A DNA stretch of 62,140 bases, counting the filler, from Hausera hauseri (Eukaryota): NCBI GenBank assembly GCA_046269625.1. It is 12 parts of 12 records of this genome, joined end to end, with 100 filler letters (N's around TTAATTAATTAA, not from the genome) between each part and the next. Parts side by side here need not be neighbours in the genome. Positions count along the whole stretch, not along the records: positions 25,254 to 30,365 come from JBJURY010331604.1; 11 more parts are not named here. One strand, 5' to 3'. The notes under the pieces are model-generated. The model ran no database searches and was not told where the DNA came from. It saw only the letters and a program-made list of their open reading frames with translations. Position numbers and translations under genes: made by a program. Shown one piece after another: positions 1 through 50,042 of this stretch; position 1 is the first letter of the stretch, and each line of letters starts with the position of its first letter.

Positions 1-1637
1 ACGACCATATGAACGAAAGATCGGGAATAAGTAAGAGAAATGATGGTCATTTGTCACTAAATAAGTAAATGAAGAGATGATTTCGAGCGCCGCGGATATT
101 TTAGATTGTTTTTGTATAATTGTGTAGTTTAATAAATATTTGTCATAATAAATTGAACACTTAGTGAGACTATGATGTTGTCCTCTTATTAAGTGATTGA
201 TTCCCGTGCTGAAGTATATAACAATGGGAAATGAAGTTTTGGGTTGTGTATACGAGGGATATTGATGCAGTTATCGGAGAGGAAGTGCAAAGTTCTCGAA
301 TAATGAGATTACTGTGAAATCAAATGACTAAGAATGAATACGGACGGCAGAGTAATTGATATTTTGTATAAACACATTGCTGGATTTCGTGGACAGAGAT
401 CCATATGGTATCCGAGTAATGGAGAGGCGCCGTGTCCGATTGGGTGAAGTTGACCCGAATTTCTGTGCGAAAAAGGTATTCAGTCATGGCTATTATGCGT
501 GATTTCGGATGGGGAATCCGTGAACGTCAGCATCTTGTTGTTGTTGGTATACGTTGTAGTAATGGGGATTGTTGAAGACGATGAGGGAGACTAGAGGACA
601 ATATGTCAGACCCGTAATCTGTAAAACCCCTAATGTCATTGGTTATTCTAAAGAAAGCGAACTCCTCGACTGTTCCCGTTCGCAGTGACTTAGTGCGTTG
701 TCCATGATTTAGGAAAAAATGACTTCTTGTACTCGAAGATCTTTTTAATCAATAAACCAAGCGTCTGTCGAGTGTTATGGTAATATGTTATCTAATGAAT
801 AATAACAATATCGAAATGTTGATTCTCCACATAATATTACAGGTTAGATATGAAATATTGGGTCCGGGTCAAGAGAGTTATATGTGTTAATATGCCTTCA
901 TTGATTTATTAACATAAACATCTTATAATTATGAACATGTTAGTAGGGTGATTTTGGTCTCCAGTACGTGCGCAATGAATGTTTCGAAATCCTCATTGCT
1001 AATGATGATCGATGGAGTCGAGGGTCATACTGTCGAACATAACCAAGTGATAACCTTGTTTCAGGGCGAATAAAATTTTAAACAAGACGAGCAAAACATG
1101 TTGTGAATCACGATCATATCATCACTATGTGTTGTTTAGTATGATATTGTAATGGGATGGTTTAGCATTTGTTTGTAACGTGTGCAGAGGCGTCAGAATT
1201 GCGTAATTAGTGTTGGTTGCACCTGGTTTGGACTGGTAGTGGACAAGTCATTGATTGCCTTTGGTTCTTGATATTGTCGTTTTGTGGGTGCTAACCTATC
1301 CGGTGAGGTTTAATGTGAGTTGTGTCGATTTACATCGATCAAGTGATTGTTTCATAAAGATCTTTGTTAGTGATGCTTGATGTTGACCTTTTATAATGCG
1401 ATACATATTGTAGAATTGTAAAAATCATTATCTGAATAACGGATGGGGACTGACGGAATTTACTGCTTGCTGACATGTATAACGTGCGTTGTTTAGAAAA
1501 ATTTATAATGTATCCTGTTTGGAGAGCTGTGATCGTCGAGGTGATAGATTGAATTCCCGAATGGTGGTAGTATTGATAGGGTTAGGATAGTGCAAATAGC
1601 CTCTGTGGCATAAAAATTTAATTAAGGAATTACACCA

Positions 1638-1834
1638 TGGATTATACAATATACACATTCACAAGAATACAAGAACGAACTGATTACTTAGAACTTGTAA
1701 ATAGTAGACTTTATTACAAAAGGATTCCTCTAAACGCCCCGTAATCCTTTATATGTGGATACATAATAAGGTTGAAATAATACCCATGTATCCAACATAC
1801 CTAACTCCACTCACGTGGGTATCGGGTAACTTCA
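1638..1834 (-). repeat. Putative 3' LTR of the glycoprotein-bearing Gypsy element
   Basis: On the minus strand, purine-rich GGAAAGGATTATGGGGAAGC is followed by TG, then CATATAAAGG (TATA-like), AATAAA and a CA end. It lies downstream of pol and the accessory ORFs. No second copy is in the window, so the ends are approximate. Confidence 0.45.
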
Positions 1835-1879
1835 GCTTCCCCATAATCCTTTCCACTTGATACCCAACAATTATACTTC

Positions 1880-2676
1880 CGTATAGACAATAGAGCAATT
1901 CTTCACGAACAAGTTCGATGTCTCTTCCATTGATTAAATGCTCCTTAATTCCTGTAACTTCTGAATAAGTTTCGCGTACCCGTTTTCTGGGACTGATGAT
2001 CTTTGTGTAAATTTCGGATCCTATCTCTCGTACTGATACTCCAATTGGAATGTCGTCCTCATCATCTACTTCTCCGTAGTTTACGGATGATTCTAGAGTT
2101 TCTGGCGTCTTGTACTAATCGTAAAGAATACAGATGGTCATCTTGATCTTTCTCAGTGGGCCTCTGATTAAACCGTAAGGGTGGCAATTGAATAAATGGT
2201 GCGTCTTCATAGCATACTTCGATCATAAGCTTAACCGGTAATGCGGCAACTCGAAATTCTATTTCGCAATTATAGTGGTGAAAGTCTGTGCTGTTAATTA
2301 GAAAAGTACTGTATCTGCTCTGTCGTCCTTGTGACGTATCCCAATTTTGATCTTTTAATCTATAGATTTCTCCATCTGCTAGATGAATAAATAATTTGGT
2401 GATAAACCGGTTCATATTGAATGAGTTGTCGCAAGGCGCATGCTCGTATCTTTATCGTCCTTCATTGCGTACAATCGTACTGTTCTATTTTCTTATGTAC
2501 TTCCTTTCAATAGTTTGCTTATATTCTACAAAGTTTCTTCCATGTAATTCATTATTGATTTGTCGAAAGATCGATTTTGACTGAGGGATTAACACCGTTG
2601 CACAGTTCTGCAAGAAGTCATCGATACTACGTCGAACTTTTCCCGAATTCGTTTTCTGGATCTGGATACTTACCAT
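1880..2676 (-). pseudogene. Accessory ORF of unknown function between the second glycoprotein gene and the LTR
   Basis: ORF fragments 2485-2676 and 2062-2415 are co-oriented with pol. The ATG at 2676 directly follows an acceptor-like TTAACCTTTATATTTTAG. Confidence 0.4.
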
Positions 2677-2840
2677 TCTAAAATATAAAGGTTAATCTTA
2701 TGACAAAGTGTCGTTTTGAACCAAAACCAATTCTTTGTTTGATGATAGAATAACCCGATCTGTAATTTTCAAGTTATTTTATCATATACGTATTCTTGGG
2801 GTCCCAATATCTTTAATTCCCGTTCTATGATTTTATAGCG

Positions 2841-3900
2841 TTAAGTTTGGCAATTTATGGTAACTAATTGAAATATCGCGATACACATTACCAGCACAAA
2901 TGTTGACAAGCTTACGATCATTATGAGTAATGTAGTTAACCCTTCGGTTTCGGTAGTCGTTATCTCTAGTGATTTCTTGTCTTGTTTTTGCATGCATGTA
3001 ATGCTATTTGTATTTCTTCTAGGGTTTGTACTGCGAAGGTTCGGCTCTGCAGGTGTTTTGCATGTATTTGTATTATATATTCTGTCTTGGTTACTAATGA
3101 GTTGCATTCGGTGTGGTATGAGCCTTTCAATAAAGTTGTTTTTTTATTTCGACATTATAGTTGAGCTTCTCTTCCACCGAAAATATTTTGCGTTGCTGTA
3201 CCCCGCACTTTACAGGGACATTAAGTAATTTCTTTTTGTTCATTTTCTTTGTCGTAGTAAGCCTAACCGTAGTGCTTACTTTCCTAAATAATTGCTCAAT
3301 CTATTTGTTTGAATTCCAGAGGTCAAAATGAATCCTCTATTCATAACCTTCTAAAATCTTACAACAGATCCTAAGATCTTTGTTTTTGATGCTACAGTAA
3401 TTGGGAGTTGGACTTAACTCGTTTATTTTAGTTAATTGGATTAAGATCTCCCGGTTGTTTGGCAATCTTCCGTTTGTATCTATTTGGATACACTTGTTTT
3501 TGTTATCTTCGGAAATACCAACTGTTTTCATTCAACGCCCATCTAATTGGGTCGGTTGACTGTACTGTCACCGAACTCTGTTGCATTGATCTGTTCTTTG
3601 ACGGGTATTACTAGTTTTACTTGCGGTCTTATTGCTCCTTGTGTACGTTCGTAGTTTTTATAGTACATTCGTATTGTGAAGGTATAAATGTTTCCATAAT
3701 TTATGACACATCTTTCTCGAGCTCCATACGGAAAATCGCAATGGGTCATTACTCGTTTATTGGCGTTTCATAGAACTACTTGGTATTACTGATTTTCTCA
3801 CGGTTCCGTCCGTCTTAAATAGCACACAGTCTCGTCTTGGATCTATACTTTGGACCTTGAATCGATCTAAGGTGCTTAAGTCGTTCCTTTTTGTTCTTAC
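2841..3900 (-). pseudogene. Cys-containing type-I membrane glycoprotein (GP2) downstream of integrase
   Basis: Fragments DCVLFKT, THCDFPYGARERCVINY and KCIQIDTNGRLPNNREILIQLT..PNYCSIKNKDLRICCKILEG, with a C-terminal hydrophobic anchor LTTLLIMIVSLSTFVLVMCIAIFQLV. Aligns with 29580-30365. Confidence 0.65.
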
Positions 3901-3904
3901 TAAT

Positions 3905-5647
3905 TTATCTTTCATCCATTTGTTTAGTTGTTGCATCCATCTTGCTTGAGCCTTGGCTTTCGGAATATATGAAACTATCAGTGATAGTGCTAAGACTATT
4001 TGTATGTAAGACGGGTCTGGTAACTATAGACGAGTTTTTGGTTTTTCTACATTTCGTATCCTTTATACGCAGTTGGTGTCGTTTATCCGGTTTTATCTCC
4101 GCTTTCACTACTCGTTGCACTGACACTACTTTCTTTCCGTTTTTATTGATATATACGGTAGTGGGTGTGATTCTGATAACTTCATTAGGTCCTCTTTCGG
4201 TACGCGTGAGCTTTAATAATGTGCCTTTAGCTACGGGATAGTACACAAACTCAATCTCCGTTCCTTAAATAGTGCGGTTTTGCCTTATCGTATTGCTTCT
4301 TAAATCCTTGGTATTCTAATGATAGTGTCTTTGCTACTTCCCAACACTTTTGTAGTCTGACCTGTAGAACTTCTACAAAATTTGGTTCTAGCTCTTCAAT
4401 GTTTGCTTCATACGGAATCATTCCTAAGTCCGTAGGTAATGCCAATTCATATCCGATACTTTCTTTGCTTACGTCTGTTTTAATAATAAACGGTAAGTTA
4501 AAATCAGGATATCTCAGTACTGGTTTGCTAATTAGTATCTTCATTTTGTCGAACGCCTTTTGTTCAATATCGGTCTATCTCCATTTCGTTCCCTTTTTTA
4601 ATAATCGGTATAATGGCGCATTGATTTTTGAGTTATCCGGTACGTAGGTAGCACAGTATCCACATAGACCTAACCAATGTTTCAGTTCCTTTTGATTCTG
4701 AGGTTCCATACACTCCGAAACTTTATTTAGTAATGATCTATCCGGCTTGGATTCTCCTTCGCCAACTATATGACCAAGATAGCACACGGCGTTTTGAGCC
4801 CATCTACATTTCTTTGAGTTCAGCTTGAACCCGGCCTGTTATAATCTCATAAGAGTGTCCTCAATATCCTTCAGATGCTCTTTTTCGTCTTTTGATGCAA
4901 TCATTACGTCATCTAAGTACGCAAATGCATGTTCAAGTCCCATTAGCATTTTATTCATTCTGGTAAATATGGCTGGGCCAGTGGTAATTCCAAATGGCAT
5001 AATGTTGAATTCGTATACGCCATCATGAGTTTTAAACGCTGTTTTATAACGATCTTCATCCTCAATCTCTACATACCAATATCCGGATTGTAAGTCCAGA
5101 GTGGCGAACCATTTCGCTCCTGAGAGCCTATCTAGAGCCTTTTTCACAGATGGTAAGGGAAAAGAATCTTTCATCATGAGAGTATTCAATGCTCTATAAT
5201 CAATACAGAACCTGTTTCGTGATACCTTTATTTTTGACCATAAGAATAGGTGAATACCATGACTGGAAACTTGGTCGAATTATATCTGCTTTTAACATAC
5301 GTTCTACCTCCTTGGTTATCTCCGGCCTTAGGGAACGCGGTTGCTGATACCATTGTGGCATTTTCTGTTCCTCGATATCAATTTCATCGTTTGAACCAGG
5401 CTTTTTCTTAAGTGGTATAGTTAATTTTAACGTCTTTGCTCGGCCTGTCTTCGTCCTTCGCAATGCTTGATTTATATCGACATAATAATTTGTAAAACTG
5501 GCAATAAGTTTCGGGTGAAAACTTCGTATCAACATGTGGTGGAAATTTAGCGTATTTATACGGTTTCTCTTCAACCGTTATTGCTGATACTTTGTATGTA
5601 TGCCCTAGAGTAGTGTTAGCGTATAATCTTACTGGAATTTGAGCCTT
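3905..5647 (-). mobile_element. Ty3/Gypsy pol remnant (RT, RNase H start, integrase GPY/F tail); most of RNase H and integrase deleted
   Basis: WFATLDLQSGYW, KTAF, MPFGI, AYLDD, YLGHIV, PVLRYPDFNLPFIIKTD and GPNEVIRI. 5560-5647 closely matches 15911-16100, so it is the same family as the contig-4 element. Confidence 0.92.
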
Positions 5648-10092: not shown

Positions 10093-11630
10093 TTAAATCA
10101 ACTTTCGCCAGTGAGTGTCAGATTCTCTGCAAGAATATTCAAAATTTATTGATTTATTACCGTTAATTTTGGTGTCTTATGATAGCTCTGTTGAAAAGTT
10201 AGTCCAAATGTTTCAATCTTGTGTGAAAAACCTGATATCAAAGTTGTACAATGATTTTCAGATAATCGCATCAAATCGACAAACATAGGACGTATTATTT
10301 CTATTACTTAGTGACTCAACAGCTCTACAGCTCACAAGTCCTCTTTTGAATGTGAAGCCGAAATGTGAAGATATTGGTGTTTATTTCTTTGAACAGAAAG
10401 TATTTTCTGATTTTCAAAAACTGTTTTCACGTCAATTAATTGAAAGATGCTTCAATGAATTAGTATCTGTTGTTTTGGAAGATAGCAAGTCTAATCTTTG
10501 GAATGAACTTAAAGAATTTCACGAAAATATGAGTTGGTTATCCAATTCAAGCGTGGCATTTATATTTGGAACGACTCTGGCACATACTTAGTATAACTTG
10601 TTCCATTCAAATATCGAGAGATATTTTATATGATGTACTAACGACAAGTTTGGAATTTCTCATTCAGCGTTATGCAGCGGCTAATTCACCAAAAAGAAGA
10701 TATTCAGGCTGCTTTTGTCAAATTTCATTAAACCGGAAAAATAAAAATTTAATTTCGAGTCCAAAAAATATCTGAGGTTGACCCGAGTTTATGTAATCGG
10801 GTCACTTTGGAAATTTTTCTGGAGTCAAAACAGTTTGAAACAGTAAAAATTGTTGAGGTTATTTGCCACAATAAGATGAGTATATCCAGGAAACTTCTTG
10901 TGCATTTGTCTCAGCAACCTGTTCAATATGAATCTCAATATGAAAAGCTTTGCCCAATATTTATAGCATTTTATCGTGTCATGTCATTCATAACAGATCC
11001 ATTCAATTATTTTCATTCCATTCTGATTAATATGATTAACAGCAACAACGCTTGGTGCGAATTTCATCGGGATGAAAAGTCACACTCTGTGGCTTGGTTA
11101 GCATCTTTGTATGAAACATGTTTTCCATATGTCGATTCCATTGTTACTGACATCATTAATTATCAAAATCATACGCAGAAAAGTCACTTGAATTTTAATT
11201 CACTTATATTTCCAGATAATTTATTGCCATGTGGTTGTGAATGTACAAATCTGAAGGTTACGGACATGAAAGATGAAAATTCAGATTTCTTCAAGAAAGC
11301 TGTTCAAGACCAAGTTCTCAACTGGTTTCACATTCTAACAGCGATGAAGGTTCATATTCCGATGAAAGAATTCTTAACAATGTTTGCAATTGGAGTTACA
11401 TGCACACGAGATCCAATACTGCTTGTTGACGGTAGTTCAAGTGAACCAAGTAGACCGTCCCTTAGCCATCAATATGAGTCTGTTTTGTTCTGGTAGTGAT
11501 ACCGGTGGTGGCATTTACCACCCTGAAGTGAATTAGCCCAATGAAATGGATGCTGCTTGCCAATATGGTGGCCATTACGGTGGAGTTAGAGACGAGCACA
11601 GATCAGTACTCAGTTTTGTCCTGCTTGTGC
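10093..11630 (+). pseudogene. KIAA0825-like protein fragment
   Basis: SVVLEDSKSNLWNELKEFHE and ILYDVLTTSLEFLIQRYAAANSPKRR resemble recalled KIAA0825 motifs; frameshifted. Confidence 0.55.
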
Positions 11631-13069
11631 ATGATGATTCAAAATTACATTAATCGGCTTATCAAATATCTACTCGATAAACTCATTAGAAAATATGTTG
11701 AGAATTTTACCAGTGACAATGAGCAAACGGGCTTTCGGCAGGGTAACATCAGATTAGTGAAATTGTCGTTGAAAAGTAATGTGCTCACTGATTTGGCTTA
11801 TTTTCCAATTGTTGTAAAGAAAAGAATTATTGGTAGCGTCACATTGAGAGTTCCCTATACCCAACTTCGGAGTCACGCTTATGCAATAATGTTTAAAGAT
11901 ATCTATATAATTGCCGGAAGAAATGAAAATATGGAGATATCCCGCCACAAAATACCTCAGAACGAAGTCATTCTCAAAAAAACAATCCTCGATACACTTG
12001 AATCGAAATGGATAAAGAAAATGAAACAGCCATCCAATTCGGATAAATCCGATTCTAACACGTGGTCGTCGTATATCGCATCATTGGGTTACCGAATTCT
12101 TCAAAACACACAGATTGAAATTAGAAATATTCACGTTAGATACGAAGCCGAAATTACCATTTCAGATAGAATATTCGCCGTTGGATTTATCACCGATAAA
12201 GTATCGGTCAAGACTGTAAATGTATAAGATTATACGTCGATCTAGATTACATTTGTTGCTCTGAAGTTACCGAATGAGCTGAAATGAGGATTCCGCTAGA
12301 TAATAAGAAAACACCATGGAAAGAAGCTGATTAGATGGTAAGACCAATTTCGTTGAGTGATAAAATGAAGAGACTTAACACTCCATTGCCACTGGTCGAC
12401 AGACCGAGAATTAAACTTCAGGTCGAAACGAAAGAACAGGAATTGGAAATGACACGTTCACAGTACCAAGCAACAATTGTAGCGATTAGTGAATTAAACA
12501 TACTAGAACATCGGCTTTTTAATACAAAACTCCGACCGCACAAGATTATTAAAGAGTTATCTATCGATTGGTGGCGCTTCTCTGTCAATGCAAATATTCG
12601 ACGCACACTTCCAGTTGAACATACGATACGTAGATTTCAAAAGTCAGAAGATATAAAATCTCATGAAGAATATTTGCTTGGATTAACAGTTTTAGATGAA
12701 GCATTAAATGATGAACTTGAAAGTTCTTTAGATATCGATCTCATTATATTTTTACGGGAAGTAACTGTTTATCGAGCAAATTGTAGATTTTCTGACAGTA
12801 CTATTCCATGATTTCTGGGTGCAAAAGTCAGAAGCAACGACACGGTGGTTGTCTTATATTTGGGGATTCAGATAGAACCGACCTCAGCCGATTGTGTCAT
12901 CGATACCATCCAATCCAACGACCATCAGTATCGGTAATCAGGGCGACTTCCTTTTGCAGCAGCAGAAGATTCTCAATTCGATATCACCACGACCGTATGA
13001 CGTTAGTAATTTGTTCTTATTGAATGTCATATCGACAGTCTACGCTAAATTGCTGAAGGGAAATTTGGA
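11631..13069 (+). pseudogene. VPS13: VPS13-family (VPS13D-like) chorein N-terminal fragment
   Basis: KYLLDKLIRKYVENF..GNIRLVKLSLK..FPIVVKKRIIGSVTLRVPY, ILQNTQIEIRNIHVRYE, RPRIKLQV and WWRFSVNA. Truncated by a Gypsy element at about 13070. Confidence 0.82.
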
Positions 13070-15910: not shown

Positions 15911-16700
15911 TTGTGCGATTATTGAACGGTACTTACATAATAATTCATAGAACTTGCAATATGCTTCAGGAGAAAATTTGGTTTCCACGTAAGGCGGAAA
16001 TTCAGCACACTTGTATGGTTTCTCCTCTATTGTCACTGCTGATACTCGGTAAGTGTGACCTAAAATAGTGTTAGCGTGCAATTTTACGGAAATTGGTGCA
16101 TTATTCACTAATCTGATAGGTATTCGTCCCGTCACTACTCTACACAAAATATTACTAAACATCAGGTTTGGATCAATACTCCCTTGGGGCTCGAAATATA
16201 CTAGTAAATCCTTGTCTTGACGGATTTGTGCGAAAATTATCATCTCGGTTCGGAACGGAATGTCTTCATCTACTGGGATCCATACTTTGCCTGATATTCT
16301 TTCCTTTATTACCTTTGTACCTTTTATTGGTTCAAGTTCAATTAATTTTTTATTATGCACATCGATTGCCATACCTGGTATCTGTTTTAATATATCACAA
16401 CCTAGTACTACATTGCCTGTTAACTGGTTCATCACCGCAAATTCATGTTGAAGTGCTTAGCCCATCATATAAATGGTAGGAGTCCATTTAAATTTTGGCT
16501 TCGATACTTGCGTAAATGCACCTACTCTTCCAGGGTCTGATGATGGTAGTGGGCATAATTGCTCTCTTAGGGTGGTTGGTAACTATTCGTATTTTATAAA
16601 CGACTTCTCTGATCCGGTGTCGATTAATGCATACACTTCCCAATCTTCAATGTGTATTTTAGCGAAAGGTCTCCCTTCTACACTATCTTTGACCGTTTTA
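15911..16700 (-). mobile_element. Gypsy aspartic protease and protease-RT linker
   Basis: VYALIDTGSEKSFI (DTG at 16614-16622), VVLGCDIL and IPFRTEMII..GRIPIRLVN. Confidence 0.88.
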
Positions 16701-16989
16701 TAGTAGAGACCCTATATCCATTTATCGTTATTTCTGGCGATGAAATAATATCTTGCCTTAATTGTCCTAATTCTCCGTTCGGGTACAAGTCGTTATTTGT
16801 TACCTCAGTAACGCGACTGTCAATGAGTGGTTCCTAGGGTAGTGGACTCGAGATCGAACACAGTTTCGGGTTCTCCCAGATCGTTGATTTCGATTCTATG
16901 TGCCGTGGTATCCTTTTTGTGTACAATATTCTATGGTCGTTTTCTGTTGGTACTTGGTGGATAACATTCATTTTTTGTAGTACCCCATA

Positions 16990-19607
16990 TTATTTTGTTT
17001 TTTCATAAGGGTCTTCATAACTGATGGGCTTCTGATAGATTTCGGATTTACATGATACGATTGATTTATGGTCGCAGTCTTCATATATTGGTGCTGTTGG
17101 CGGCATGATGGGTAATGGCGCGTTAATCACTAAATACATCTCGTGCATCTTCATTTTGTAACTTCCTTCTCCTCCCTTAGGCTCGTCATCATCTGAATCA
17201 TCTTTCCGTACTATTGTCTTTTTATTTTTGCGTTTAGTAAGGATCAAGAGTCTGCCTCTTTGTTTACGATTATAATATCCGACATGGCGTTCTACATCAT
17301 TTTTCTATCGATTTTCTTCGTAGGCCTTAAGCATTTTTCCGAAGGACGTAATAATTGCAGTCAAAATTTTGCAGGAAAATCCTGTTAACATAAATATTTT
17401 ATATCCGTTGATAATGGCTTGAATTACAGCCTTAACTAGCTGGACTAAAAAGTAAATGGCTAAAAATCCAGATGCGGCCTGTCCAAAAATCAGAAATCTT
17501 CCCCCAATCTTATACAATATTTCTAAAGTTACTCTTTGATAGTGGTTAGCGCCGAGTAACGACTCCCATTTTGCTTGAAAGCGAGTATCGTCCATTACCA
17601 TGAACATGGCCCGGTTTAGTTCATAAGTTCTTTGGTGCGGAAACGCTAAAAATTGCCTAAAGGCTTCTATGTCCTTTGGTCTATAATTTCTTTTGTTGGC
17701 TGTCTTCAAACTTTTCCTCTGATAATCCTTTGATTAGGTTTGTTCCAGTTAGCTTGCTAGGGGCTGCGATAGCGCCTCCATTAGGTAAGCTTATCCAATC
17801 CGTACTGCTACGTCGAAACATGGGTTCATCTAGGCTTGTTTTGCATTCCTGCAGTATCGTTGGTTCAGTTGAATTTGCCAATAATACTTTAGTGAGTGGC
17901 GTCGTTAGTCCAGGCATGTTGTCATAGATGACTGGTAATTCTTGCATGCACCTTTTCTCTTCTACGTTAATCGGCACGTCTCTTTTTTCGCATTCATAAG
18001 TTAGTAGTACTTCTCCAGTAAATCGTCCAAAGACGCCTTGGTATAATTGGTGATGCCAATTCTGGGTTGGCACAAATTAAAGTCAATTTGGTTCTCATGA
18101 TTTCAGTATCTAATCTGCAGTCATTTGTTATCACTTTGTGATATAGCCCTGCTATTCCGGTTTGTCCTTTGTAATGAAAATAGTCGTCTTGATTTTTGAG
18201 GTAATCCTCAATTCGTATGTCTTGCGTTTTCAAATCATACGTTTTCATGTTAATTTTAGTTTCTGCTACGAAAAATGCCTCATAATTTGTGGCATACATT
18301 ACTACGTCGCACCATGTTATCATATCTTTTCTAATAAACTTCAATCCATGCGTGTCCGATATCAATATCGTTGGTGTAGAATGTTCTATCATGTCTTTCC
18401 TTGATCTCGTATTAGTGTGTAATTTATTTGTATAGCGTTTTCCGGTTGTCTCATTGAATTTCAACTTTTTGATTTTAATGAAGTTGCACTCTCTCTTGGA
18501 AGGTGGACTCAAAACAACAACTTAGCTTCGGCACGTACAAGCGCCATCTTGTATATGACATTTTTAATTTTCAGTAAATAGTTTGGTAACACTATGAAAC
18601 ATTGCCTTTAAGGATCTCAACTCGGTTTCGTAAAAATCTACCACTACTATTTCTCCTTCTTTTCCTTTTCAAGTATCATATTCGGCTCCGACACAATAGT
18701 CCGTGTGCATATTTAGTTTCCCGATTGCCACTTTATAGGCTCTATTAATCTTTCCTTCTTGGGCTTCTAACTCCATACCATCCCAAACCATTTTCCCGGT
18801 CAGCCGGGATACTAAACAGTGTTTTTTAACCACATTCATTGGTATCAATGGTATGGTTGGTTTGATAATTGAAGAATGCCCGTGCATATTACCACAGTGG
18901 AAAACGCTGCGAGATCTCCGTATCACACATTCCGTTGCATCCATTGCAATTAATTCCCGTTGTTGATATAATATATATCCTTTTTCAATGGTCTCAAGCT
19001 TATGAGGTCTTGCATCTTCGCATGTTTCTAAATCCATTAAGGAATATTTTTGACCTACCTTGAATTTATCACAGTCGTATACGGTAACTGCTCCCATTTG
19101 CTTCACTAACATCATTATCGTCAGTAGGTTGATTAACCAATTCGATCTGTTTTCCTTGTTCAAGGAGATGTTTCGCGTCATATCTTCTAATTTGTTAGTC
19201 CCTGTTGCATCTTCCTCTTTTTCGAATAATTTAGCCCATTTTATTTCTTTGGGTATTCTTCTGGCAGCTTTTCTACCTAATCCAATTGTCTTCTCAAATT
19301 TGTTTTCTCGGAGCGGGTTGATCCTTACTGCTAGGTATATCAAGACTTTCCTTAATTCTTCCGTCGTATTGTATATCATAATTCTATCAATTACTGTTTC
19401 GTCAGAAAGGGTGCTTTTAGATAACTTAAATTGTGGAGTCTTCATCGTCCGGGCTATATTATATATTAGTCTTTCTTTCTCAGACAATATGCCGCCTTGA
19501 CGTCCGGTGTAGTTGACTATCCTAATTAAGTCTCGCATTAGCTCAACCAATTCTTTGTTGTCTGAACTCGGGATCGGCACCGATAATTGTCTCAATTCTC
19601 TAATCAA
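16990..19607 (-). pseudogene. Chuvirus-like (class III, gB-type) envelope glycoprotein with N-terminal extension, internal signal peptide, TM region and cytoplasmic tail
   Basis: Signal LLTIMMLVKQMGA/VTVYDC, then YSLMDLETC, ECVIRRSRSVFHCGNMHGHSS (cf. chuviral HCGMHSH.S), YCVGAEY, GEVLLTYEC, RCMQELPVIY..LTTPLTKVL and TM FGQAASGFLAIYF; frameshifted. Confidence 0.85.
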
Positions 19608-19630
19608 GTCTGCATTATAATCGATTTCTT

Positions 19631-20011
19631 TTATTTTCTTGGTCTTCCGACTGGTAGTTTTGGTTTTATTGATGGTAAAGTTTCGCTTAACGGAACTAAA
19701 TTCTTGTCGTATTGCGGATTGTCGTCATCCGTCTGTAAGTATTTAAAGTACATTGCGACATCTTGAATCCCCATAATTTTTCCAACACAATGTTTTGTAT
19801 GCGCCTTCCTTATGGCTTCGTCTTTGGTTTGCTCACTAGTAATTATTGCTATTATTCGATTCGCTTCGAGTGGTATAACCCCTACGTCTATTAAAAATTT
19901 CAACTCATCTAGTTTTCTACCTCTAAAATAGAGTCGATAATTAACTTCTTCCCTACCATTCTTATTCATTATCCGCTGTTTTATGTCTCCAACGGTGGTA
20001 AGGTAGTGCAT
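19631..20011 (-). pseudogene. Ubiquitin-like domain ORF upstream of the glycoprotein ORF
   Basis: TTVGDIKQRIMNKNGREEVNYRLYFRGRKLDELKFLIDVGV aligns with ubiquitin [41 protein letters not shown]; there is no diglycine end. Confidence 0.65.
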
Positions 20012-20604
20012 TCGAATTCCTCGTTATCTATTTCTTTAAATGATACTTTCAGCAGGTCCCTCAAAAATACGCACGAACATTGATTAATTACGCAAGATTT
20101 ATCTTCCGCTTGCAAACCATTTAACACAATAAACCTTTTTATGCCAGGAAGAGGTGTTGATGGGTCGATGCATTTTGCTCCTTGACACTGACGGAATCTT
20201 CTCTTATAACCGACACCGCAAGTCGTTGTACATGGTGACCATTCAGACCATTTAGACCAAACGTTTTGTCCAGCTGATTAAAAATTATCATATAAAGATA
20301 AAAGGTTTCAGGCAATGTAAAATCAACCTTGACATTTAGGACCAGTACAGACCAATTGACCGTTTGTACACACGCTGCAAGCATTATTCATACGGTTTAG
20401 TGTGAAATGAAAATTACCAAGTTTGACAGTCGAAAAATACTGTAGAATTGGCCTTAACATGATTGGCGTCTAATCCGGTTGTTGGTAACGTTCTTGATCT
20501 TGAAAAAGGTACAATGGTAGTAAATCCTTTGCCCGGTATTTGATTTCTGCCTCCACCTGGTGGATAATCTGAACCACGTCCTGGAATCAGGGTATTGGAT
20601 CGGC
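19981..20604 (-). CDS. Partial host gene with VWC-like and thrombospondin type-1 (TSP1) domains (SCO-spondin/mucin-like); three exons visible
   Basis: Removing GT-AG introns 20375-20417 (43 nt) and 20274-20327 (54 nt) gives FDCQTCVCTNGQLVCTGPKCQAGQNVWSKWSEWSPCTTTCGVGYKRRFRQC..EDKSCVINQC. An upstream acceptor lies at 20605. Confidence 0.8.
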
Positions 20605-21275
20605 CTGAAAGTTATAGATATATGATGATTTGCTACACTATATTATTTGAAATTATGTCAGTTTCATAATATAGTTAGTTTGAAGCACATAGTATATCAA
20701 ATTTTATGAAATCGCAATCTATTTATTCAAGGTCATAATTATAATAAACCATGAGTCACATCATTAACAACATGTCTTTCCTAGTATAATTAAACATCAT
20801 TTTATTCAATATTTACAAATCCAGACAATTTTAAATTTTTTTGCGTTCAAGATACTTTCAATTGTACGTTAACAATACGGCAGGTCATATTAAAGTCAAG
20901 TTATGCACAATAGATTGATGGGATATATAAATTCAAACTCGTGCTCTTTTGAAATAAGACAACATGTGGAACATGGCAACATAAAGTTGAAAGCGTAAAA
21001 CGTGCTTCATACAAACAAACAAAAGTCATAGTACGCATCGGTCTGTTGGTGCTTCTTGGGTCACAAAATGCATATTCAGTGCATCTTTGTGTANNNNNNN
21101 NNNNNNNNNNNNNNNNNNNNNNNNNNNNNNNNNNNNNTTAATTAATTAANNNNNNNNNNNNNNNNNNNNNNNNNNNNNNNNNNNNNNNNNNNNAGTGCCC
21201 CGATTTGCTCCACTTCTATCGAGGCTCTGCCTTTTGGGGCAACTGACTCCTGATCGGATTCTGTTTCTTCTTCCT

Positions 21276-22489: not shown

Positions 22490-24760
22490 ATTTTCGTTTT
22501 CGAATGTATCATCACAACCACTGTGTATGTCATGCCCGTCAAACAGGAACTAATATTCACTGATTGGTCAAAAACAGACAGTCCGGCATATGTAGTATAT
22601 GCCGATATCGATGCTGTCTTACCACAGCACAACATATATGACCAAAAACATGTTTCAATCGCCGTCGGTATGTTGGTTGCCCTAATTAAAGCTGCAGGTC
22701 AACCTCAATATTGTTTTCCACTGATGGAATTGTGTACGTCATTTCTTGCTGCAGTTGCAAACCACAGTGGAAACTAAAATCGCACCCTGGTACAGTATAA
22801 ATAGCAATAAACCCTTGACGTGGACAAATGAAGATGAACACCAGACGTTTGAAGTCACAAGTGAATGTTGCCTATGCCAGAAAATATTACCGTTTGACGC
22901 TCTGGAGCGGCTTGTACCGGATCATGATCATTTTACTGGTCGATATCTCGGAGCGGCATGTAATTCATGCAATTTAGCAGGGCTTGTGCAACCATTCTTG
23001 CTGGTGGTATTTCATAACTTCAGGGATTATGATTGCCACCATATTTTGAAATGGGCAATAAACGGATTTCCGCACTGGGAGCTATCCATAATTCCAACTA
23101 CGATGTAGAAATACCTGTAACTCTCTGCTCGTATAAACCGGTTCCAGGTACGCTTCCTTGATTCATAACAATTTCTCAATGAATAATTGGCAAAGCTGGT
23201 AAATGCCTTGCCAATGTGCCGATAGCACTGACAGTTCCCCACACATCGCATGCCGCAAAGGCATATTTCCATATATCTTTGCAACATCATATGCGCGACT
23301 CTGGACAGCAGAGGAATTACCGCCCCGATGGACAGTTATCGCTGAGGATGAATACCGGAAAGCACAGAGGTGTTGGACAGAACTCGGCTGTAGAAACATG
23401 TTGGATTACATGCTCAAGTATCTTAAACTGGAAGTGTACTTATTAGCCGATGTGTTCCAAGCGTTTTGAGCGAAAGCGCTGGCTAAAGATAGGCGGGAGC
23501 CAATCAACTTTTATTTCATACCGGGAATGAGTTAAGCGTCAGCTCTAATGTCATTGGATCGAGACACTGAGCTGCTTTAAGATCCGGAAATGTACTGGCT
23601 GTTCGATGTTGGTATTTGCGATGGCATGATATTTGTCAACAAGCATCAGGTCGGTGCTACAGATACCCCATCACTGACGTATATTGATATTAATAACATG
23701 TACAGCTGGGCGCTTTCGTAACCCTTGCCGTACGGTTCATTCGAATGGGTTGTCGGCAGACAAGATCTGGACGACATAATAATGGTCAACCTACCACGAG
23801 CAGACATGGCAGGTTCAGTCAGATACCTGATGGAGGTTGATCTCGTAGTACCAAATGAGCTGCATGACGTTTTGGACGATTTACCGGTCGCACCATTTAA
23901 CCTATGTCCGCCAGGCTCAAAAGTGAAGAAACTGCTTATGACGCATGAACCGAAGCTGAATTACGTGGTCCATTGGCGTCTGCTACAGTTCTTCATGCAG
24001 CTCGGTGTTCGTGTCACACAGCTACATCATGCAATCCGATTTGCTCAGGCTCCAATATTCAAGGCGTACATAGATGAAAATTCGGAGGAACGAGCTGCAG
24101 CTTGTACAAAGTTCGAAAAGGACTACTACAAGGTGAAAAACAATTCCCTGTACGGAAAGACAGTGGAGAATCTGAAAAGACGGCTCAATGTACGCCTATT
24201 CAATAGCAAAAGCGGTTGGTCACGTACACGAATAAGGCGCAGTTTCGGCGGTCAATGCGCATTGCCAATGGATTGGTTGCCGTGCTCTTAAACAGAGACG
24301 TCGTACTGGACCGGCAAAGTTACATCGGACAAGTGGTATTGGACTTGAGTAAGTTGCGGATGTATGAGCTACAGTATCGCGATATGGCATGTTACCGGCA
24401 AATATTTCACAACTGTGACATTAATATACTTGCCGGTGACGGTTTTTTCCTTCAGCCAAAAACGTTAATTGTGAACAGCTACAGCAGAAAATGCAGTTAG
24501 ATGGATTAATGGACATGTCCAACTATCCACTGGATCATTCGTTGTACAGCAGCGCAATCACCGACAAAATCGGCTGCTCAAAGAATGAAAGTGAAGGAAG
24601 GGAATGAATATTCCTATGCCCAAAGTGCTACAGTCTTCTGCCGGACTGTGGACCAAAAATGCGAGCAAAAGGAGTCCATCTGAGACAGACGAAAATCGAC
24701 CACGGTGACTATCGCCGTATATATGAAGAAAAGCAGCAGCAGGAGGACAATCAGCGGCTG
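22490..24760 (+). pseudogene. Polinton/Maverick protein-primed DNA polymerase B
   Basis: VVYADID, DHDHFTGRYLGAACNSCN, VVFHNFRDYD, RKGIFPY, YIDINNMY, KVKNNSLYGKTVEN and YIGQVVLDLSKLRMY; many stops. Confidence 0.93.
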
Positions 24761-25253: not shown

Positions 25254-26055
25254 CCGCCATATCCCAAGGAGGAATTTATGCGCAACAGAATTTAAAGGAC
25301 TATCGGCGGATGTTATTGTTTCCTCAGCAGAGACAACGAGTTAACGGAATTAACAAGAAGAGTGATGTGGGACGGAGAAGGATCACCACAATGGGAAAAA
25401 ATAATGGGAAAGGACTACTTAAAGAAAGTAACGAGGAATGTCATGGAAAAGATGTGGGGAAAATTTTTGTGTTTTGGTCAGGCTGCTTCAGGATTTTTAG
25501 CCATATATTTTATCATCAGTGCTTTACGGACAATATTTACTGCACTGGGTAAAGCTTACGGAATACATGCAGCAGTAGGTTGCTCATGGAAAATCCTCCT
25601 AGCAGTAATACCGGCGGTTGCCAGTTGTTTTCTAGCAAACCATGACGCCAAATGGAAAAAAAATTCTTAAAGGAAGGAATAATGATATTGACAAGAATTC
25701 ACCATATAATACCCTAAACGATAAAAATGATGATGATGAAAATAATTCAAATGTTAAATTGAGACGTGGTAGATATTTAACAAAACTTAGAAGATTTTCC
25801 TTAAGATCCCGAAGACAGAAGTATAAACGGAAATTGGTTACTGATTTACCTCAGTTACATCCGACAGACGAATACCACGGACAAATATATAGCAAACAGA
25901 TTCTAAGTCTTTCGGCTCCTCAATATGTGAAACACGGAGGAATGTACCTCACATATCATATATTACGCGTAAAACAAGATTATGAAGAAAAACACGCGTT
26001 ATATGTTCGTGAATCCACATGTAAAACGAATGATAAAAAGGGCCCCAGTCGGTGA
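25254..26055 (+). pseudogene. C-terminal part (TM and cytoplasmic tail) of a chuvirus-like glycoprotein, directly upstream of pol
   Basis: MLLFPQQR..WEKIMG..GKFLCFGQAASGFLAIYF..GCSWKIL aligns with 17305-17709; FGQAASGFLAIYF is identical. Confidence 0.85.
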
Positions 26056-29000
26056 TTAGACCAGAAATAGACACTGAAGTAGATGGACATCCCTTAACAG
26101 CTTTAATAGATACGGAATTTACTACTACAATAATAGGAAAAAGTCAATTGCCTAAAGAATTAGCAAGAAAATTACGAAAGCCAGAAGAAACGTTAATTAA
26201 CGTTGGAGCGTTCGGTATGGAGGAGGAAATAAAGACAGTCTTAGATGCGAAAATTAAAATCCATGACCAGATAATAAACCATACGATAAGAGTGGCCAAG
26301 AACTTAACCAACGAAATATTGATCGGATGTGATGTATTACAGCAACTGGATAACGTGTATATAGATGTCAAAACTGGCCAGCTTAAAACATTCGGAAATC
26401 GATATGAAGGATCAGTCTCATTAACTAAAGATGTTGTGATTCCGCCACGTTCTGAGATAATAGTATGCGGCAAGATAAAATATACATCACCGATGAACTA
26501 CGTACACTTTGAACCATTCCCACAGATAATGGAGAAATACAACATCCTTGTTGCACCACACATAGACAGGATAAGAGACGGAAAAATTCATTTGAGAATT
26601 TGCAACACAGGATCAAAAGCGAAACGGCTGAACAAGAATATGAGACTTGGGCAAGCCATAGGCGTCGAAGAAATATCAAAAGGGACAGTTAACTCAGTAA
26701 TCACGGAAGTGGAAGAGATAGAGAAACTGATGATGAAGAAGTTGAAAGGAAAAATGAATAAGGGTAAAGACGAGAAGGAAATTACCCGCATTGATTGGAA
26801 AGAGAAATTACAAGACTGTAACATATCTAATGAAGAAAGAAGAATGCTCATCCAGCTACTGAAGAAAAATAATAATCGATTCGCCCAGAATGATTACGAT
26901 TTGGGAAAGATGAACGTTATACAACATGTGATTAAGTTGAAGGAAGACCAAAACAAGCCTATAAAGAAGCGACCATATTGACTGGCATATGATAGAAAGG
27001 AAGAAGCTCGTAAAATTATAAACGAAATGAGGGGAAATAAAATAATACGACCTAGTTGGTCCCCATGGACGGCTCCAGTAGTGATGGTGAAAAAGAAGGA
27101 TGGAACTATGAGATTTTGTATAGATTATAGAGTATTAAATTAAATTACGAAAAAAGACACATATCCGTTGCCAATGATCGACGAAATATTAGATAAGTTA
27201 CATGACTCAACTATATTTACCACCATCGACCTACAAAAAGGATATTGGCAAATTGAAGTAAAGGAAGAAGATAAGCCGCAAACAGCTTTTTTGATGGGTG
27301 AAGGGTTATGGGAATTTAATAGAATGCCATTTGGATTAAAGAGTGAGCCCCCAACCTTTCAAAGAGCAACAGAACTACTGCTTTTAGATGCACCACACGC
27401 TATGGTATACATAGATGATATAATTGTAGCATCGTCGGATTTTCAACATCACCTGAAAGATCTGCAGGATCTCTTTGATAGATGTAAAGTAATGGGTTTA
27501 AAAATAAACCCAAAGAATGCTCATTTGCCCAAACCGAAGTCGATTTTCTCGCACATCAAGTTGATAGATATGGTGTGAAACCTTAAGACAGACTACTGAA
27601 CAAAATTCAAGATTTCCCAAAACCTACTACCGTTAACGAACTACGCAGATTCTTAGGACTAACAAATTACTACCGAAGATTTATAAAAAATTTTAGTAAA
27701 ATAGCCAAACCATTGTACGAGTTGTTACGAGAGGATTTGGAAAAGGTGATATGGACCAGTGATTGCCAGAAGGCTTTTGAAGACTTGAAAGAAAGATTAG
27801 TGAGTGCTCCTATTCTGATTTATCCTGATATGACTAAACCATTCATATTAGCTACAGACGCAAGCGACTATGGAATAGGAGCGGTGTTGTCACAAAAAGG
27901 TGAAGATGGTAAAGAACATCCAGTTGCCTATGCGTCGAGAAAACTAAATAAACATCAAAAGAAATACGCCGTCATTGAAAAGGAATTACTAGCAATAATA
28001 TTTGCCTTAGAAGTATTCTCACCGTATATTAGTGAGAATAAACCCTTGATAATATACACAGACCATCGACCACTACAATGGCTGAAGAAACACGAGAATC
28101 CCAATAGCAGACTATTACGATGGGCTTTAAAACTCCAATCTTATACATTAGATTTTCAGTATAAGCCCGGCACGCGAAATGCAAATGCGGATTACTTATC
28201 CAGGTTGCCGCAAAAAGAAGCAGAAAAGAAAGAGGTAATTGCAGAAGTATGGAGCATGGAAGGATCGGTCGAAAAGATAAAAGAGAATCAACGAAAAGAC
28301 GAGGAAATAAAAGCCATTAGAAATTACATACAAAATAAAATTATACCAAAGGATAGAGAATTAACTCGTCATTTAACCAGATTTGGCGATGCGTATGAAG
28401 AAAAAGATGGATTTTTATATTATATTCATCAAAATGGACCTGTGCTAGTAATCCCAAAGAAGAATATGGCAGTATTACTAACCCAATATCATGATGGATT
28501 ACTAGGCGGACATCAGTCAGTAAGAAAAACTGTAAACAAATTGAAAATAAAATATTTCTGGTCTACGATGGCAAAGGATGTACAAGATTGGTGTAACAGC
28601 TGCAATCTCTGTGCCACACGGAAGAATACAGGATCTAAATTTAAAGCCCCCTGAAAGTGTGGGATAATCCATCCGCCCCGTTCGAATTTACTGCAATGGA
28701 CATAACGGGACCTTTACCATTGACAAGAAATGGAAATAAATATATCTTGGTATTTATAGATTATTTCACCCGATGGGTTTTCGCACTGCCCATGTCGGAT
28801 ATGAAAGCGGAAACGATAGCTGAAAAATTCGTAGAAAACATCATATTTAACTATAGAGCTCCTCGAATTTTGCTAACGGACCAAGCATCTAAGTTAAATG
28901 GCCATGTGACGCAAGCAATATACGATATTATGAAAATATTAAAACTGCGGTCCACTCCAGGCCACCCAGAAAATAACGGAATGGTTGAAAGGTACGTAGG

Positions 29001-29560
29001 AGATCTAAAAGAAAAGCTGCAAACGGTAGTTAATGTAAGACAAGATGACTGGGATGAGTACATTAATGCGTGTGTCTTTGTGAATCGAACGTCTGTACAC
29101 GAAGCCACTAAAGAGACACCCTTTTATATGATGTACCTAAGAGATGCCCGGTTACCGATTGATCTGGATTTTAATGTTAGGCCCATATCTCAGTTAATGG
29201 AGGTAGAAGAATATAAACAATTAATGCAGGAACGTCTCCAATTAGCATATAAAGTAATTAAGGATAACCAGAAGGAATATAAAAGGAAGTATAAAAAGTA
29301 TTATGACGAAAAGACGAAACAACCGATAATTAAAGTGGGAGATAAAATGATGTTATACACACCGTTAAATAAGAAATGAAAGACATCCAAGCTAGGTAGA
29401 CCTTATAAGGGACCATACGAAGTATAAAAAGTAGACCTACCGAATGTATTTTTGAAGAAAAATAACACAAAAATTAAAGTACATCTTAACAGGTGCAAAC
29501 AAGCACATAAGGAAAGCGAATTGAGAAATGATGAACAGGAGTTAGTACGGACCATCAGTT
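26052..29560 (+). mobile_element. Near-complete Ty3/Gypsy pol (PR-RT-RNaseH-integrase) with few lesions
   Basis: [90 protein letters not shown] and YKGPYEV. Confidence 0.95.
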
Positions 29561-29579
29561 ATAAAAAGAGAAGTTATAA

Positions 29580-30365
29580 AACTTTAAGTTACGAAGTAAT
29601 TGGGTGGTTCTGTTTTTTGGTCCTCATAGGAATACCTGGCGTATTTGCTCAAACGACAAAATCATTTGATCCATAGATGGAAATATTCCATTTAAGTGAA
29701 ACGTTAGAAAATAGTCTGATGAGAAACATTGATCATGAGATAACCTATACAAGGAAAGGCCAAAAATGTATCAGATTTACAACATTTGAAAGACTACCCA
29801 ACAAATATATGGTAGGAATTCAAGTAATCCATGAGCATAATTACGAATGAAGCTCTAAACAACGAAAGTATGATTGCGGTCTTAATTATTGGAGGAACAT
29901 AAGGGATTGTATAGTAGACAATTCTGGTAATTATCTCATATATTATGCCCTGATCANNNNNNNNNNTAGTTATCAATGGCAATATACCAAGTGTCAAGGT
30001 ATAATACAAGTCCCTAATAGACGAACAATGAACGTAACCAAACTCAACGAGATAATAGTAACTCAAGTCACCGTTAGGCCGATAGAATTTAAAAGCGGAC
30101 GAACTTGTATCGAAGTTAAAACAATGATAGAGTTGCAAGAGAATAGAGTAATAAGTATAACACTTACTAATGTTCAAAAGAAGCAAAAAATACCCACAAA
30201 ATGCCAATTGTCTGATAAACATCTCCGAGTTTGCTGTAACGCCTTACGAGGAAGAACCTACGACTTGAAATTTATGCTATACGCAAGGATTTAGAAAGCA
30301 TCAAAACATTAACTCACCAAGGGCCCAGAACATATGTTCCACTCAAAAATGTTATTGAACACAAA
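29580..30365 (+). pseudogene. Second membrane glycoprotein (GP2), with a signal peptide continuing from the integrase tail
   Basis: VIGWFCFLVLIGIPGVFA/QTT signal, then KCIRFTT, YDCGLNYWRNIRDCIV and TCIEVKT..NRVISITLT..PTKCQLSDKHLRVCCNALRG. Homologous to 2841-3900. Confidence 0.7.
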
Positions 30366-41993: not shown

Positions 41994-44170
41994 TCACCCA
42001 CCTGTGTTTGAATATCTGAGTCCTGGATGTCGAATTTGACCACATCTCAAGTGTTTTCTCCAGTGGATCATCCTTGTTGACAAATGGATGCCGGTTTCGT
42101 CGACATCCCTCGAACATTGGTTCTCTCTTTTGGTAAATATATTGTTGTTGAGAGACTTTAAGAGGATATTCTGAAACGTTTTATCGAAAAGCGATCCAAG
42201 CTTTTCACTCAGCAATTCAACAAAACCTAGCTTGTCTTTGACAATTACCATACGATCGGCAAATACTGGGAAATTTTCATGTATCCACAATCTTATCAGA
42301 GAATTTTTTGTGTCGTGATAATTCTTATTTGCTCGAAGCATACCTTGGAATATTTTACTTTTGTCTCGCAAGTTCAATAAATAATGAATTTTCGTTGTGT
42401 CGTCCAAATTACTGCGTTTTTCTTTCGGTTCTTTACAGGCAATTGATTGAGCAAGTTTAGTAATCTCAAACTCTTTTAATTTTTCTTCAATGTTCGAGTC
42501 TGAAATTATTGATAAATTATCATCAGTTTTACTTAATGTTCGAATTTTATAATCATCAGCCATGTTAGCTGATTTCTTCGATTTCTTAGACATTTGCCCC
42601 TTTTTACATTTATTACCATCAAATCCAGGAATATCAACTGGTTCGAAAGTTAAAGAGGCAATCGGTTGATCGCTTTTTTGTACTTTAAAAAACTATTATT
42701 CGAATAATTATTTGGTCGACCTTTCGATTTTTTGGAATTAATCCACTGATTGTTTTTGCTATTATTGTTGTTGTGATTTGGTGGATTATTCTGATTGATA
42801 GTGGATGACATATTTTCTTGGTTACAGCTGAGCTTCTGTTTGTTTGAATTCGAGACATTTCTCGATTGATGTTTTAATATCATTGTCAAATTTCCATTTA
42901 GTAAGATTATTGACCGGTTTTATAATATTTTGAGTTTCCGGTTTACAAATGATTTTGTAATTGGTTTCCAATTTCGGTTTCAGAGATGTTTTGATTTGTA
43001 ATATGATTTACTGATCGGAAAAACCATTGAATTAACATAAAGAGAATGCCACGTTTTCGTTTCTTTTTATGTTGAATACTATTAGATGTAATCGAACAAG
43101 AATCGGTGATACATGCATCACCGGATATGCTTCTACCACAGTAAGATTGTAAAGCGTCATTTTCATCATACTGTTTCTCATCGTGTTTCTTACACGAATT
43201 AAATCGTTTTACCAAAACAGAATCATTGTGACGATTGTAATACGATAAGTAATCAGCATTGAACGTTTTTGTCGTATTATTATTAATGGATTGATTTTGG
43301 GAAAAGAATGGTGATGCTCTATTGAAAAGATTTCTTGAGTCATTGACTCTCTCGTTTGATGAAACTGGATATGTTCCAGCAGCGACAGAACTTAAATGGC
43401 GATATATTACATTGCTCGTAAAAATTCTATCTGCCTCATAATACGACATCAGAATGGTGGCATACATAAAAAATATCAGAACGACAACAAACATGTACCA
43501 AATTAGAATTTCACTGTCAGGATGGGCTAACGATTGGCTACATCTATGTAACATATGTGCGGAAACAGAAGCATGAACTGTTATGTTATATCGTTTTTCA
43601 TTAAGACCAGTGTAAATTTGTGATTGCTGTACGACTTTATGCAAACTGAAGTCAGGTGTAAAAATAATCTCTAACTTCAATGTTTCATTCACTGGCAACT
43701 TATCCGTTACATTCGACTATTTAAAATTTATAGCCGGCACCAAAAATTTTCACCTTTATTTTCAACGTCGGTCTTTACATTTTCAAGAATAATTGGAATA
43801 GATGTATCTTAACGGTTATTCCGAATATTGTTGATATTCAATTGTTGTCGGCGTAACGACTGGACCTAACTGAAATCCTGAAATGAAAACAGGAATTTTT
43901 CCCACCTTTTTTATTACAAAAGGTCATCGAACGGTAAAACTGGGAATTCCTTTTGATTGGGCTATATCACAATTTTTGAGATGTTTTTCGGTCAATTCAA
44001 AATGCAACTCTAATAACTCTTCCTGATTATTACCATTTTGGAATGAAAGTTCACCCAATATGCCTTCGCCTTCTATTAAAATGTTTTTGATACTGGTAAT
44101 ATTGTTTCGCAAAATTAGCAGCGTTTTTAAGGTTTTATTTAAATTTGCATGACTAGGATTAAAATATATT
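41994..44170 (-). pseudogene. TMEM131: TMEM131-like protein, C-terminal part, apparently intronless and degraded
   Basis: ILRNNIT..IEGEG, LHFELTEKHLKNC, PSFTVR, IIFTPDFS..V, ASVSAHMLHRCSQSLAHPDSE, a TM segment, then SYYEADRI. The 3' limit is uncertain. Confidence 0.85.
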
Positions 44171-49776: not shown

Positions 49777-50042
49777 AGTAGTCTTTATATCTCAAGATGT
49801 GTTTGCCTGAAATCCAACTATTTAATGATGAATTATAACAATAGAATTTCACTAAATATTCGTTACCACACGCCGTTCGCCTTTCTTGTATAATGCTATT
49901 GATTCAATAAACTTGTTTGTCTCCGACTTTCTGCTACTCTTCNNNNNNNNNNNNNNNNNNNNNNNNNNNNNNNNNNNNNNNNNNNNTTAATTAATTAANN
50001 NNNNNNNNNNNNNNNNNNNNNNNNNNNNNNNNNNNNNNNNNN

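Follow-up and report, generated by a model that had tools for sequence, protein, structure and literature searches.

A candidate second membrane protein at the Pol end of a Ty3/gypsy element carrying a gB-type envelope gene

Retroviruses and env-bearing retrotransposons are usually pictured with one envelope gene. The placement of env before pol is already known from Burro (PMC6431247) and from flatworm, nematode and bryozoan errantiviruses; the mechanism of transmission is described as elusive for most elements (PMC13524379). The planarian giants Burro and GYPSM1, of over 30 kb, carry Env between gag and pol, a dUTPase-like spacer between protease and reverse transcriptase, and one long polyprotein with accessory domains (PMC6431247). 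The element described here may resemble them in these respects, its env standing before pol in broken frames and its dUTPase-like match being weak, and two of its relatives (L001 and L003) share their ankyrin repeats, L001 also carrying a weak SUMO-like ORF. It differs in that ankyrin repeats are absent from the 62 residues that separate integrase from signal in the window copy, and in that the available portion of PMC6431247, compared by description only, names no membrane protein after the integrase. The HSV/gB-type errantiviruses, of GAG-ENV-POL order, likewise combine a Ty3/gypsy pol with a chuvirus/gB-type env on its 5′ side, but the accessible parts of their description present one env per element and a chromodomain as the only post-integrase domain, and the words "fibronectin" and "attachment" occur nowhere in its main text (PMC13524379). 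Atlas virus of hookworm is also a retroelement with a two-part glycoprotein; its Gn-Gc is one captured phlebovirus-like module (PMC9094657), whereas here two unrelated proteins flank pol. LTR elements of bdelloid rotifers share DEDD exonucleases, a dUTPase and small TM proteins after pol, called ORF3, while the sections available to us mention no FN3 or Pol-fused receptor-like protein (PMC5408684). The portions consulted of PMC12440569 and PMC8532177 yielded nothing further. In these texts, and among the titles and abstract openings given by literature searches, we found no published description of an FN3 or PDZ-tailed protein after an integrase, and supplements, figures and subscription literature could hold one.

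The window analysed here is a stretch of 62,140 nucleotides of Hausera hauseri DNA, in which 12 unrelated contigs of 4-6.5 kb each are concatenated through 11 identical N44-TTAATTAATTAA-N44 joins; neighbours across these spacers carry no meaning. The contig at 25254-30365 opens inside a fusion glycoprotein gene (G) and closes inside the protein of interest, which we call GP2. Its plus strand carries, in order, G, protease (PR), reverse transcriptase (RT), RNase H (RH), integrase (IN) and GP2, with G to IN assigned by Pfam (Table 1). The PR-RT-RH-IN domain order is that of Ty3/gypsy (Metaviridae) elements, and the element is a decayed member of this group. Its dUTPase match, found in one of the four PR-RT spacers scanned, lies below the cut-off (E 0.069).

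As in gB-type errantiviruses, a chuvirus/gB-type env lies immediately 5′ of pol on two contigs of the window (PF24664, Table 1). The order of G then pol is right in both G-bearing copies, and the frames are broken in both. By its sequence, the element on contig 15911-21093 is a related copy, different from the one on contig 1 (positions 1-5647), whose start its end overlaps at 74% over 168 nt. No gag family match was found in Pfam for the ORF 5′ of G on this contig. Just upstream of the same element lies a thrombospondin type 1 piece (19981-20283, minus strand, E 5.5e-8); this could be host DNA, either taken up by the element or lying beside it. Elsewhere in the window are VPS13 and TMEM131-like pieces of host-like appearance and part of a type B DNA polymerase (10753-12811, 42943-43716 and 23722-24291), and the host is likely an animal. 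Long repetitive Asp/Lys/Leu-rich ORFs of >800 and 327 aa are also present (49995-53461, plus strand).

One reading frame holds the integrase core, its GPY motif, a basic stretch (29563-29580), a hydrophobic stretch (from 29605) and a GVFA site (29638-29649). The two C-[IV]-x-[FIV]-x-T motifs, at 29767 and 30106, follow in the same frame. The original prediction had placed a signal and a Cys-patterned ectodomain in the integrase frame; the shared frame was confirmed, but it is interrupted by stops at 29377, 29425, 29674, 29848, 30292 and 30310 and by a 10-N gap (29957-29966). The signal-like stretch was judged by the -3/-1 rule. From the GPY motif to the cleavage site, the window copy contains no Met. 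By eye, a Gln directly follows the likely signal cleavage site in four sequences (position 29650 and positions 3946-3948 of the window, L002 and L001). The ectodomain comprises 214 codons with 8 Cys and one sequon, and the contig stops 5′ of any TM anchor or tail. In Pfam, GP2 had no match to fusion-protein families and reached only DUF7480, below the cut-off (E 0.0014), which argues that it is not a fragment of a known F-type or gB-type env.

In three public runs, which carry the codes of three organisms, read depth covers 30 of 30 bins of the GP2 contig; one of these runs may be the window's own source. One 351-base read piece from public runs spans 30018-30350 with 30 differences. No piece in the three runs bridges G and GP2, which occur together on one contig only.

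A homolog of GP2 is found on a separate contig, on the minus strand of contig 1. The significant alignment of the two regions that the original prediction called for was obtained (tblastn E 1e-7 within the window, 21/59 identical; z 15.5, 0/1000 shuffles). Its further description, a clear homolog ending in a TM anchor, stands as to the match and the anchor, but the alignment covers module 2 only, and three parts of the homolog lie in different frames: its signal-like stretch at about 4008-3946, its TM at about 2930-2862 and, between them, module 2 with its motif at 3492. Two tandem modules had been proposed for each copy. GP2 does show two motifs, but the homolog seems to carry a third module. 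Within GP2, modules 1 and 2 are not significantly similar (114/1000 shuffles); GP2 module 1 aligns significantly with module 2 of the homolog (3/1000) and not with two pieces of its module 1 (178 and 146/1000). Most of the integrase core is missing from the contig 1 element (4254-4448, minus strand), where matches to the L001 Pol skip from residue 705 to 1093. An exonuclease-like ORF, itself without a Pfam match, lies downstream, as in the intact relatives.

Table 1. Features of the GP2-bearing element, of its homolog and of the related G-bearing element, in window coordinates.
Feature	Positions	Strand	Evidence and remarks
G, C-terminal part, chuvirus/gB-type fusion glycoprotein	25254..25667	+	Pfam PF24664 Monjiviricetes_fusion, E 2e-14; one internal stop
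Linker joining G to protease; its frame differs in the decayed copy	25636..26052	+	No family match
Aspartic protease, weak dUTPase-like spacer, reverse transcriptase	26037..27578	+	RVP E 3.6e-7, RVT_1 E 2.5e-25; two stops
RNase H and integrase zinc finger	27587..28651	+	RT_RNaseH E 1.1e-41, Integrase_H2C2 E 3.6e-18
Integrase core and tail	28645..29583	+	rve E 1.5e-11; GPY motif 29398-29418; stops 29377, 29425
Internal signal-peptide-like stretch (basic, hydrophobic, V-x-A site)	29563..29649	+	Sequence, integrase frame
GP2 N-terminal region and module 1	29650..30006	+	No profile support; stops 29674, 29848; N gap 29957-29966
GP2 module 2, FN3-like by homology	30064..30291	+	Fold via homolog; break at 30292
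Homolog, signal-peptide-like stretch	3946..4008	-	After integrase-tail remnant
Homolog, module 2	3244..3525	-	FN3 sandwich of seven strands (predicted), with X in place of two stops
Homolog, likely third module, second half	2969..3154	-	10.7 bits, 0/500 shuffles
Homolog, TM anchor and decayed tail	2775..2930	-	Tyrosine motif at 2795
Exonuclease-like accessory ORF 3′ of homolog	1749..2114	-	tblastn E 2e-4 to L002, 4e-4 to L001 RNase_T ORF
Related element: G, linker, protease	15911..19724	-	PF24664 E 2.7e-21

The integrase led to intact relatives. Its search returned 81 matches, three of them standing apart at 47-48% identity, with the next at 39%. Two of the 25 matches with more than 100 residues past the integrase match (P0007 and P0008) have a hydrophobic signal inside the chain and a TM at the C-terminus. 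Among 20 metagenome loci, the layout is present in three (L001-L003, 48-49% identity, all from one assembly) and not seen in the remaining 17, most of which are at 27-38% and several truncated. L001 and P0007 are one element (99.8% identical), which gives four distinct intact relatives: P0008, L001/P0007, L002 and L003. In each, a single ORF runs through integrase, signal, modules (two in L002, three in the others), stalk, TM and tail. The best layout match to the window is L002 (integrase, short linker, signal, two modules, stalk, TM, tail), which shares its short integrase-signal junction.

In a quick tree of 94 integrases, from which rows with <190 aligned residues were excluded, the window element falls within a clade of 7 rows (SH-aLRT 96). 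This clade contains all 6 rows with the integrase-GP2 layout, two of which are the same element; contig 1 was left out because its integrase core is missing. P0006 belongs to the clade, and its ORF closes without signal or TM. The clade, the layout and the intact ORFs of the relatives therefore indicate that GP2 is a trait of the lineage, neither a host gene that strayed in nor a piece of env. The homolog on a second contig, the four intact relatives and the three runs with depth likewise bear out that it is not a one-off host gene. As originally proposed, GP2 is a second membrane protein apart from the fusogen; it is best described as type I, the anchor being C-terminal in the homolog and the relatives. 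An architecture in which integrase is followed in frame by the GP2 membrane protein is very probable.

Further domains were seen in this group. Pfam places a second aspartic-protease-like domain 3′ of the integrase in the same ORF in L001 (3-7109), L003 (1-6663), P0006 and P0008; ankyrin repeats come next after it in L001/P0007 and, by eye, in L003, and L002 and the window are without the domain. Accessory ORFs follow the polyprotein in L001 (7268-11517), L002 (2684-6448) and L003 (6861-9923), among them an RNase_T exonuclease (E 1.5e-11) and further ones resembling exonucleases. L002 also has a RING finger there, and L001 a weak SUMO-like ORF. In a distant element, L008 (981-8866), pol is followed by an unassigned 337-aa ORF and after that by a G of chuvirus type (E 2.7e-39).

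Between the ectodomains, the links in sequence are moderate. Compared pairwise with four relatives, the GP2 ectodomain gave no significant similarity (z 0.4-1.7). When the window was searched in six frames with a profile built from all 11 modules of the relatives, the GP2 region was missed (iE 3.9). The modules of the relatives recognise each other when left out (0-1/300 shuffles). With a five-module profile, which was picked after the alignments had been seen and was one of three applied to seven pieces, GP2 module 2, homolog module 2 and the third piece of the homolog exceeded 500/500 shuffles, and four other pieces, including module 1, failed to exceed all of them. Because of these scores, the same position and the same clade, homology between the GP2 ectodomain and those of the relatives is likely.

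When GP2 itself was the query, no true homolog turned up, and no host homolog at the sequence level. A word-indexed search with lengths of 129-413 gave 0/50 candidates. The four matches of a full phmmer search were all bacterial cadherin-like repeat proteins, and they were rejected as a repeat artefact made of 5-8 summed weak stretches. Residues 400-1260 of P0008, used as a query, retrieved only P0008 and P0007 among 4670 candidates, and an Atlas search with the P0008 ectodomain gave no usable match. In scans of viral contigs with the integrase, GP2 module 2 and G, 0/202, 0/96 and 0/2 stretches were confirmed.

Module 2 of the homolog is predicted to form a seven-strand FN3 sandwich (pLDDT 77.7), in a model built with stops as X from a five-row alignment whose three relative modules may have steered it. 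Nearly all 46 Foldseek rows shown were FN3 domains, monobodies or cytokine-receptor FN3, the top ones being FN3 at a probability of about 1.0 and a TM score of 0.60-0.66 at best; the best E was 0.013, with none below 0.001. By VIA-align, the IL-20 receptor complex matched at a Z of 9.3 (rmsd 2.2, 83 aligned), in a tie with many FN3 rows and some others of the Ig-like kind. The same fold is predicted for GP2 module 2 because of its 36% identity to homolog module 2. The tandem beta-sandwiches expected beforehand gain support from the FN3 fold predicted through homolog module 2; GP2 module 1 lacks profile support. Weak independent hints at FN3 come from Pfam Fn3_Dep-1 in a module of L003 (E 0.0015) and from Tencon rows for the P0008 model; none of the 12 modules passed the curated cut-off of a Pfam FN3 family, the best reaching E 0.0014 on L003. 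Folded as a single sequence, the P0008 ectodomain gave a poor model (pLDDT 37.6) and an unclear VIA result (best Z 6.3, FN3 rows at 4-4.5), and the viral structure library gave generic FN3/Ig rows with no match at E 0.001.

The cytoplasmic tails are known from the relatives alone, as the window tail lies beyond the contig and that of the homolog is decayed. All four intact relatives have tails of 46-60 residues that finish in T-x-V, which we take to be a class I PDZ ligand ([ST]-x-[VIL]). This C-terminal pattern was found in 1/79 other Pol proteins and in 0/6 other ORFs of L001-L003. All four tails also contain YxN, presumably a Grb2-type SH2 ligand, against a background of 13-20% of same-length windows, and a TYEDI motif was noted. 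These counts are not independent, because the four relatives are kin and L001-L003 come from one assembly. Such a conserved tail points to a job inside the producing cell, nearer to a receptor mimic than to paramyxovirus H/G. The docking motifs in 4/4 tails thus favour the host-modulating option that the original prediction had offered beside attachment.

Based on these findings, we propose that GP2 is a receptor mimic that anchors the products of the element at PDZ-organised membrane sites of the host, a reading in which our confidence is evenly balanced. The gene order on one contig and the continuous integrase-to-tail ORF of the four relatives form its starting point. The cytosolic Pol chain would re-enter the ER through the internal signal, and signal peptidase would release GP2 as a type I protein. 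Since no Met stands between GPY and the cleavage site in the window copy and the relatives have a single ORF, cleavage at the end of Pol by way of the internal signal is the likely origin of GP2; a spliced message may be an alternative source. The ectodomain would present two to three predicted FN3 domains upon a stalk, and the T-x-V and YxN tails would bind PDZ scaffolds and SH2 adaptors. GP2 would then collect at cell contacts, where its ectodomain could bind matrix or an adjacent cell; particles bearing G would bud or pass at these sites, some GP2 perhaps joining them.

The H, HN and G proteins of paramyxoviruses are type II beta-propellers, and herpesvirus gD has a V-type Ig core. GP2 resembles both groups as a second surface protein beside a fusogen and differs from them as a type I protein with predicted FN3 domains. 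The likeness to paramyxovirus H/G suggested beforehand therefore fits poorly, given the C-terminal anchor of the homolog and the relatives and the predicted sandwich fold. GP2 might still be a dedicated virion attachment protein that binds a receptor on the target cell while G fuses, the two forming an entry machine as gD does with gB in herpesviruses or H/G with F in paramyxoviruses. We consider this unlikely, although GP2 shares a contig with a gB-type fusogen, FN3 is a binding scaffold, the relatives have a type I layout with a stalk, and a shared polyprotein would yield G and GP2 together. The conserved cytosolic docking motifs point instead to the producing cell, the module count varies among relatives, and the pairing with G is seen on that single contig, the contigs of L001-L003 stopping short of where an upstream G would lie. 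Moreover, the part of the source available describes many gB-type errantiviruses as having a single env (PMC13524379).

Somewhat less likely again is a signalling decoy or host manipulator, captured from a cytokine-receptor or receptor-phosphatase-like protein, that would alter survival or immune signalling and take no part in assembly or entry. Cytokine receptor FN3 domains are among the best fold matches, a weak profile match to IL-2 receptor beta was obtained (E 0.28), and the tail motifs YxN and TYEDI would suit such a role, as would the regulatory cargo nearby (ankyrin, RING, exonuclease, SUMO-like), which recalls Burro (PMC6431247). However, the FN3 matches tie over many families and say nothing of function, and the searches gave no host homolog at the sequence level. 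That GP2 is a misassembly, or host DNA inserted by chance, and without function, as the broken copy, the N gap, the fragmented assembly and host pieces in other elements here (TSP1 at about 20250) might suggest, is very improbable and largely refuted already by the diverged homolog at the same position on another contig, the intact GP2 within the Pol ORF of four relatives and the full-bin depth in three runs.

GP2 as a receptor mimic thus remains our preferred reading, and the protein itself is real, found across the lineage and apparently undescribed. A two-glycoprotein envelope is live but unproven. More tentatively, and with some doubt, an invertebrate retrovirus-like lineage may have built a two-protein entry machine from one polyprotein, in which a chuvirus-derived class III fusogen would be joined by a host-derived FN3 mimic that picks the target cell and, via its PDZ tail, the site of passage. 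A protein in this position would escape surveys that seek env as a separate, known ORF. The small ectodomain and the short tail of the intact relatives can be tested separately. A lineage-wide second membrane protein on the end of Pol would offer a concrete candidate for how gB-type errantiviruses recognise cells and spread.
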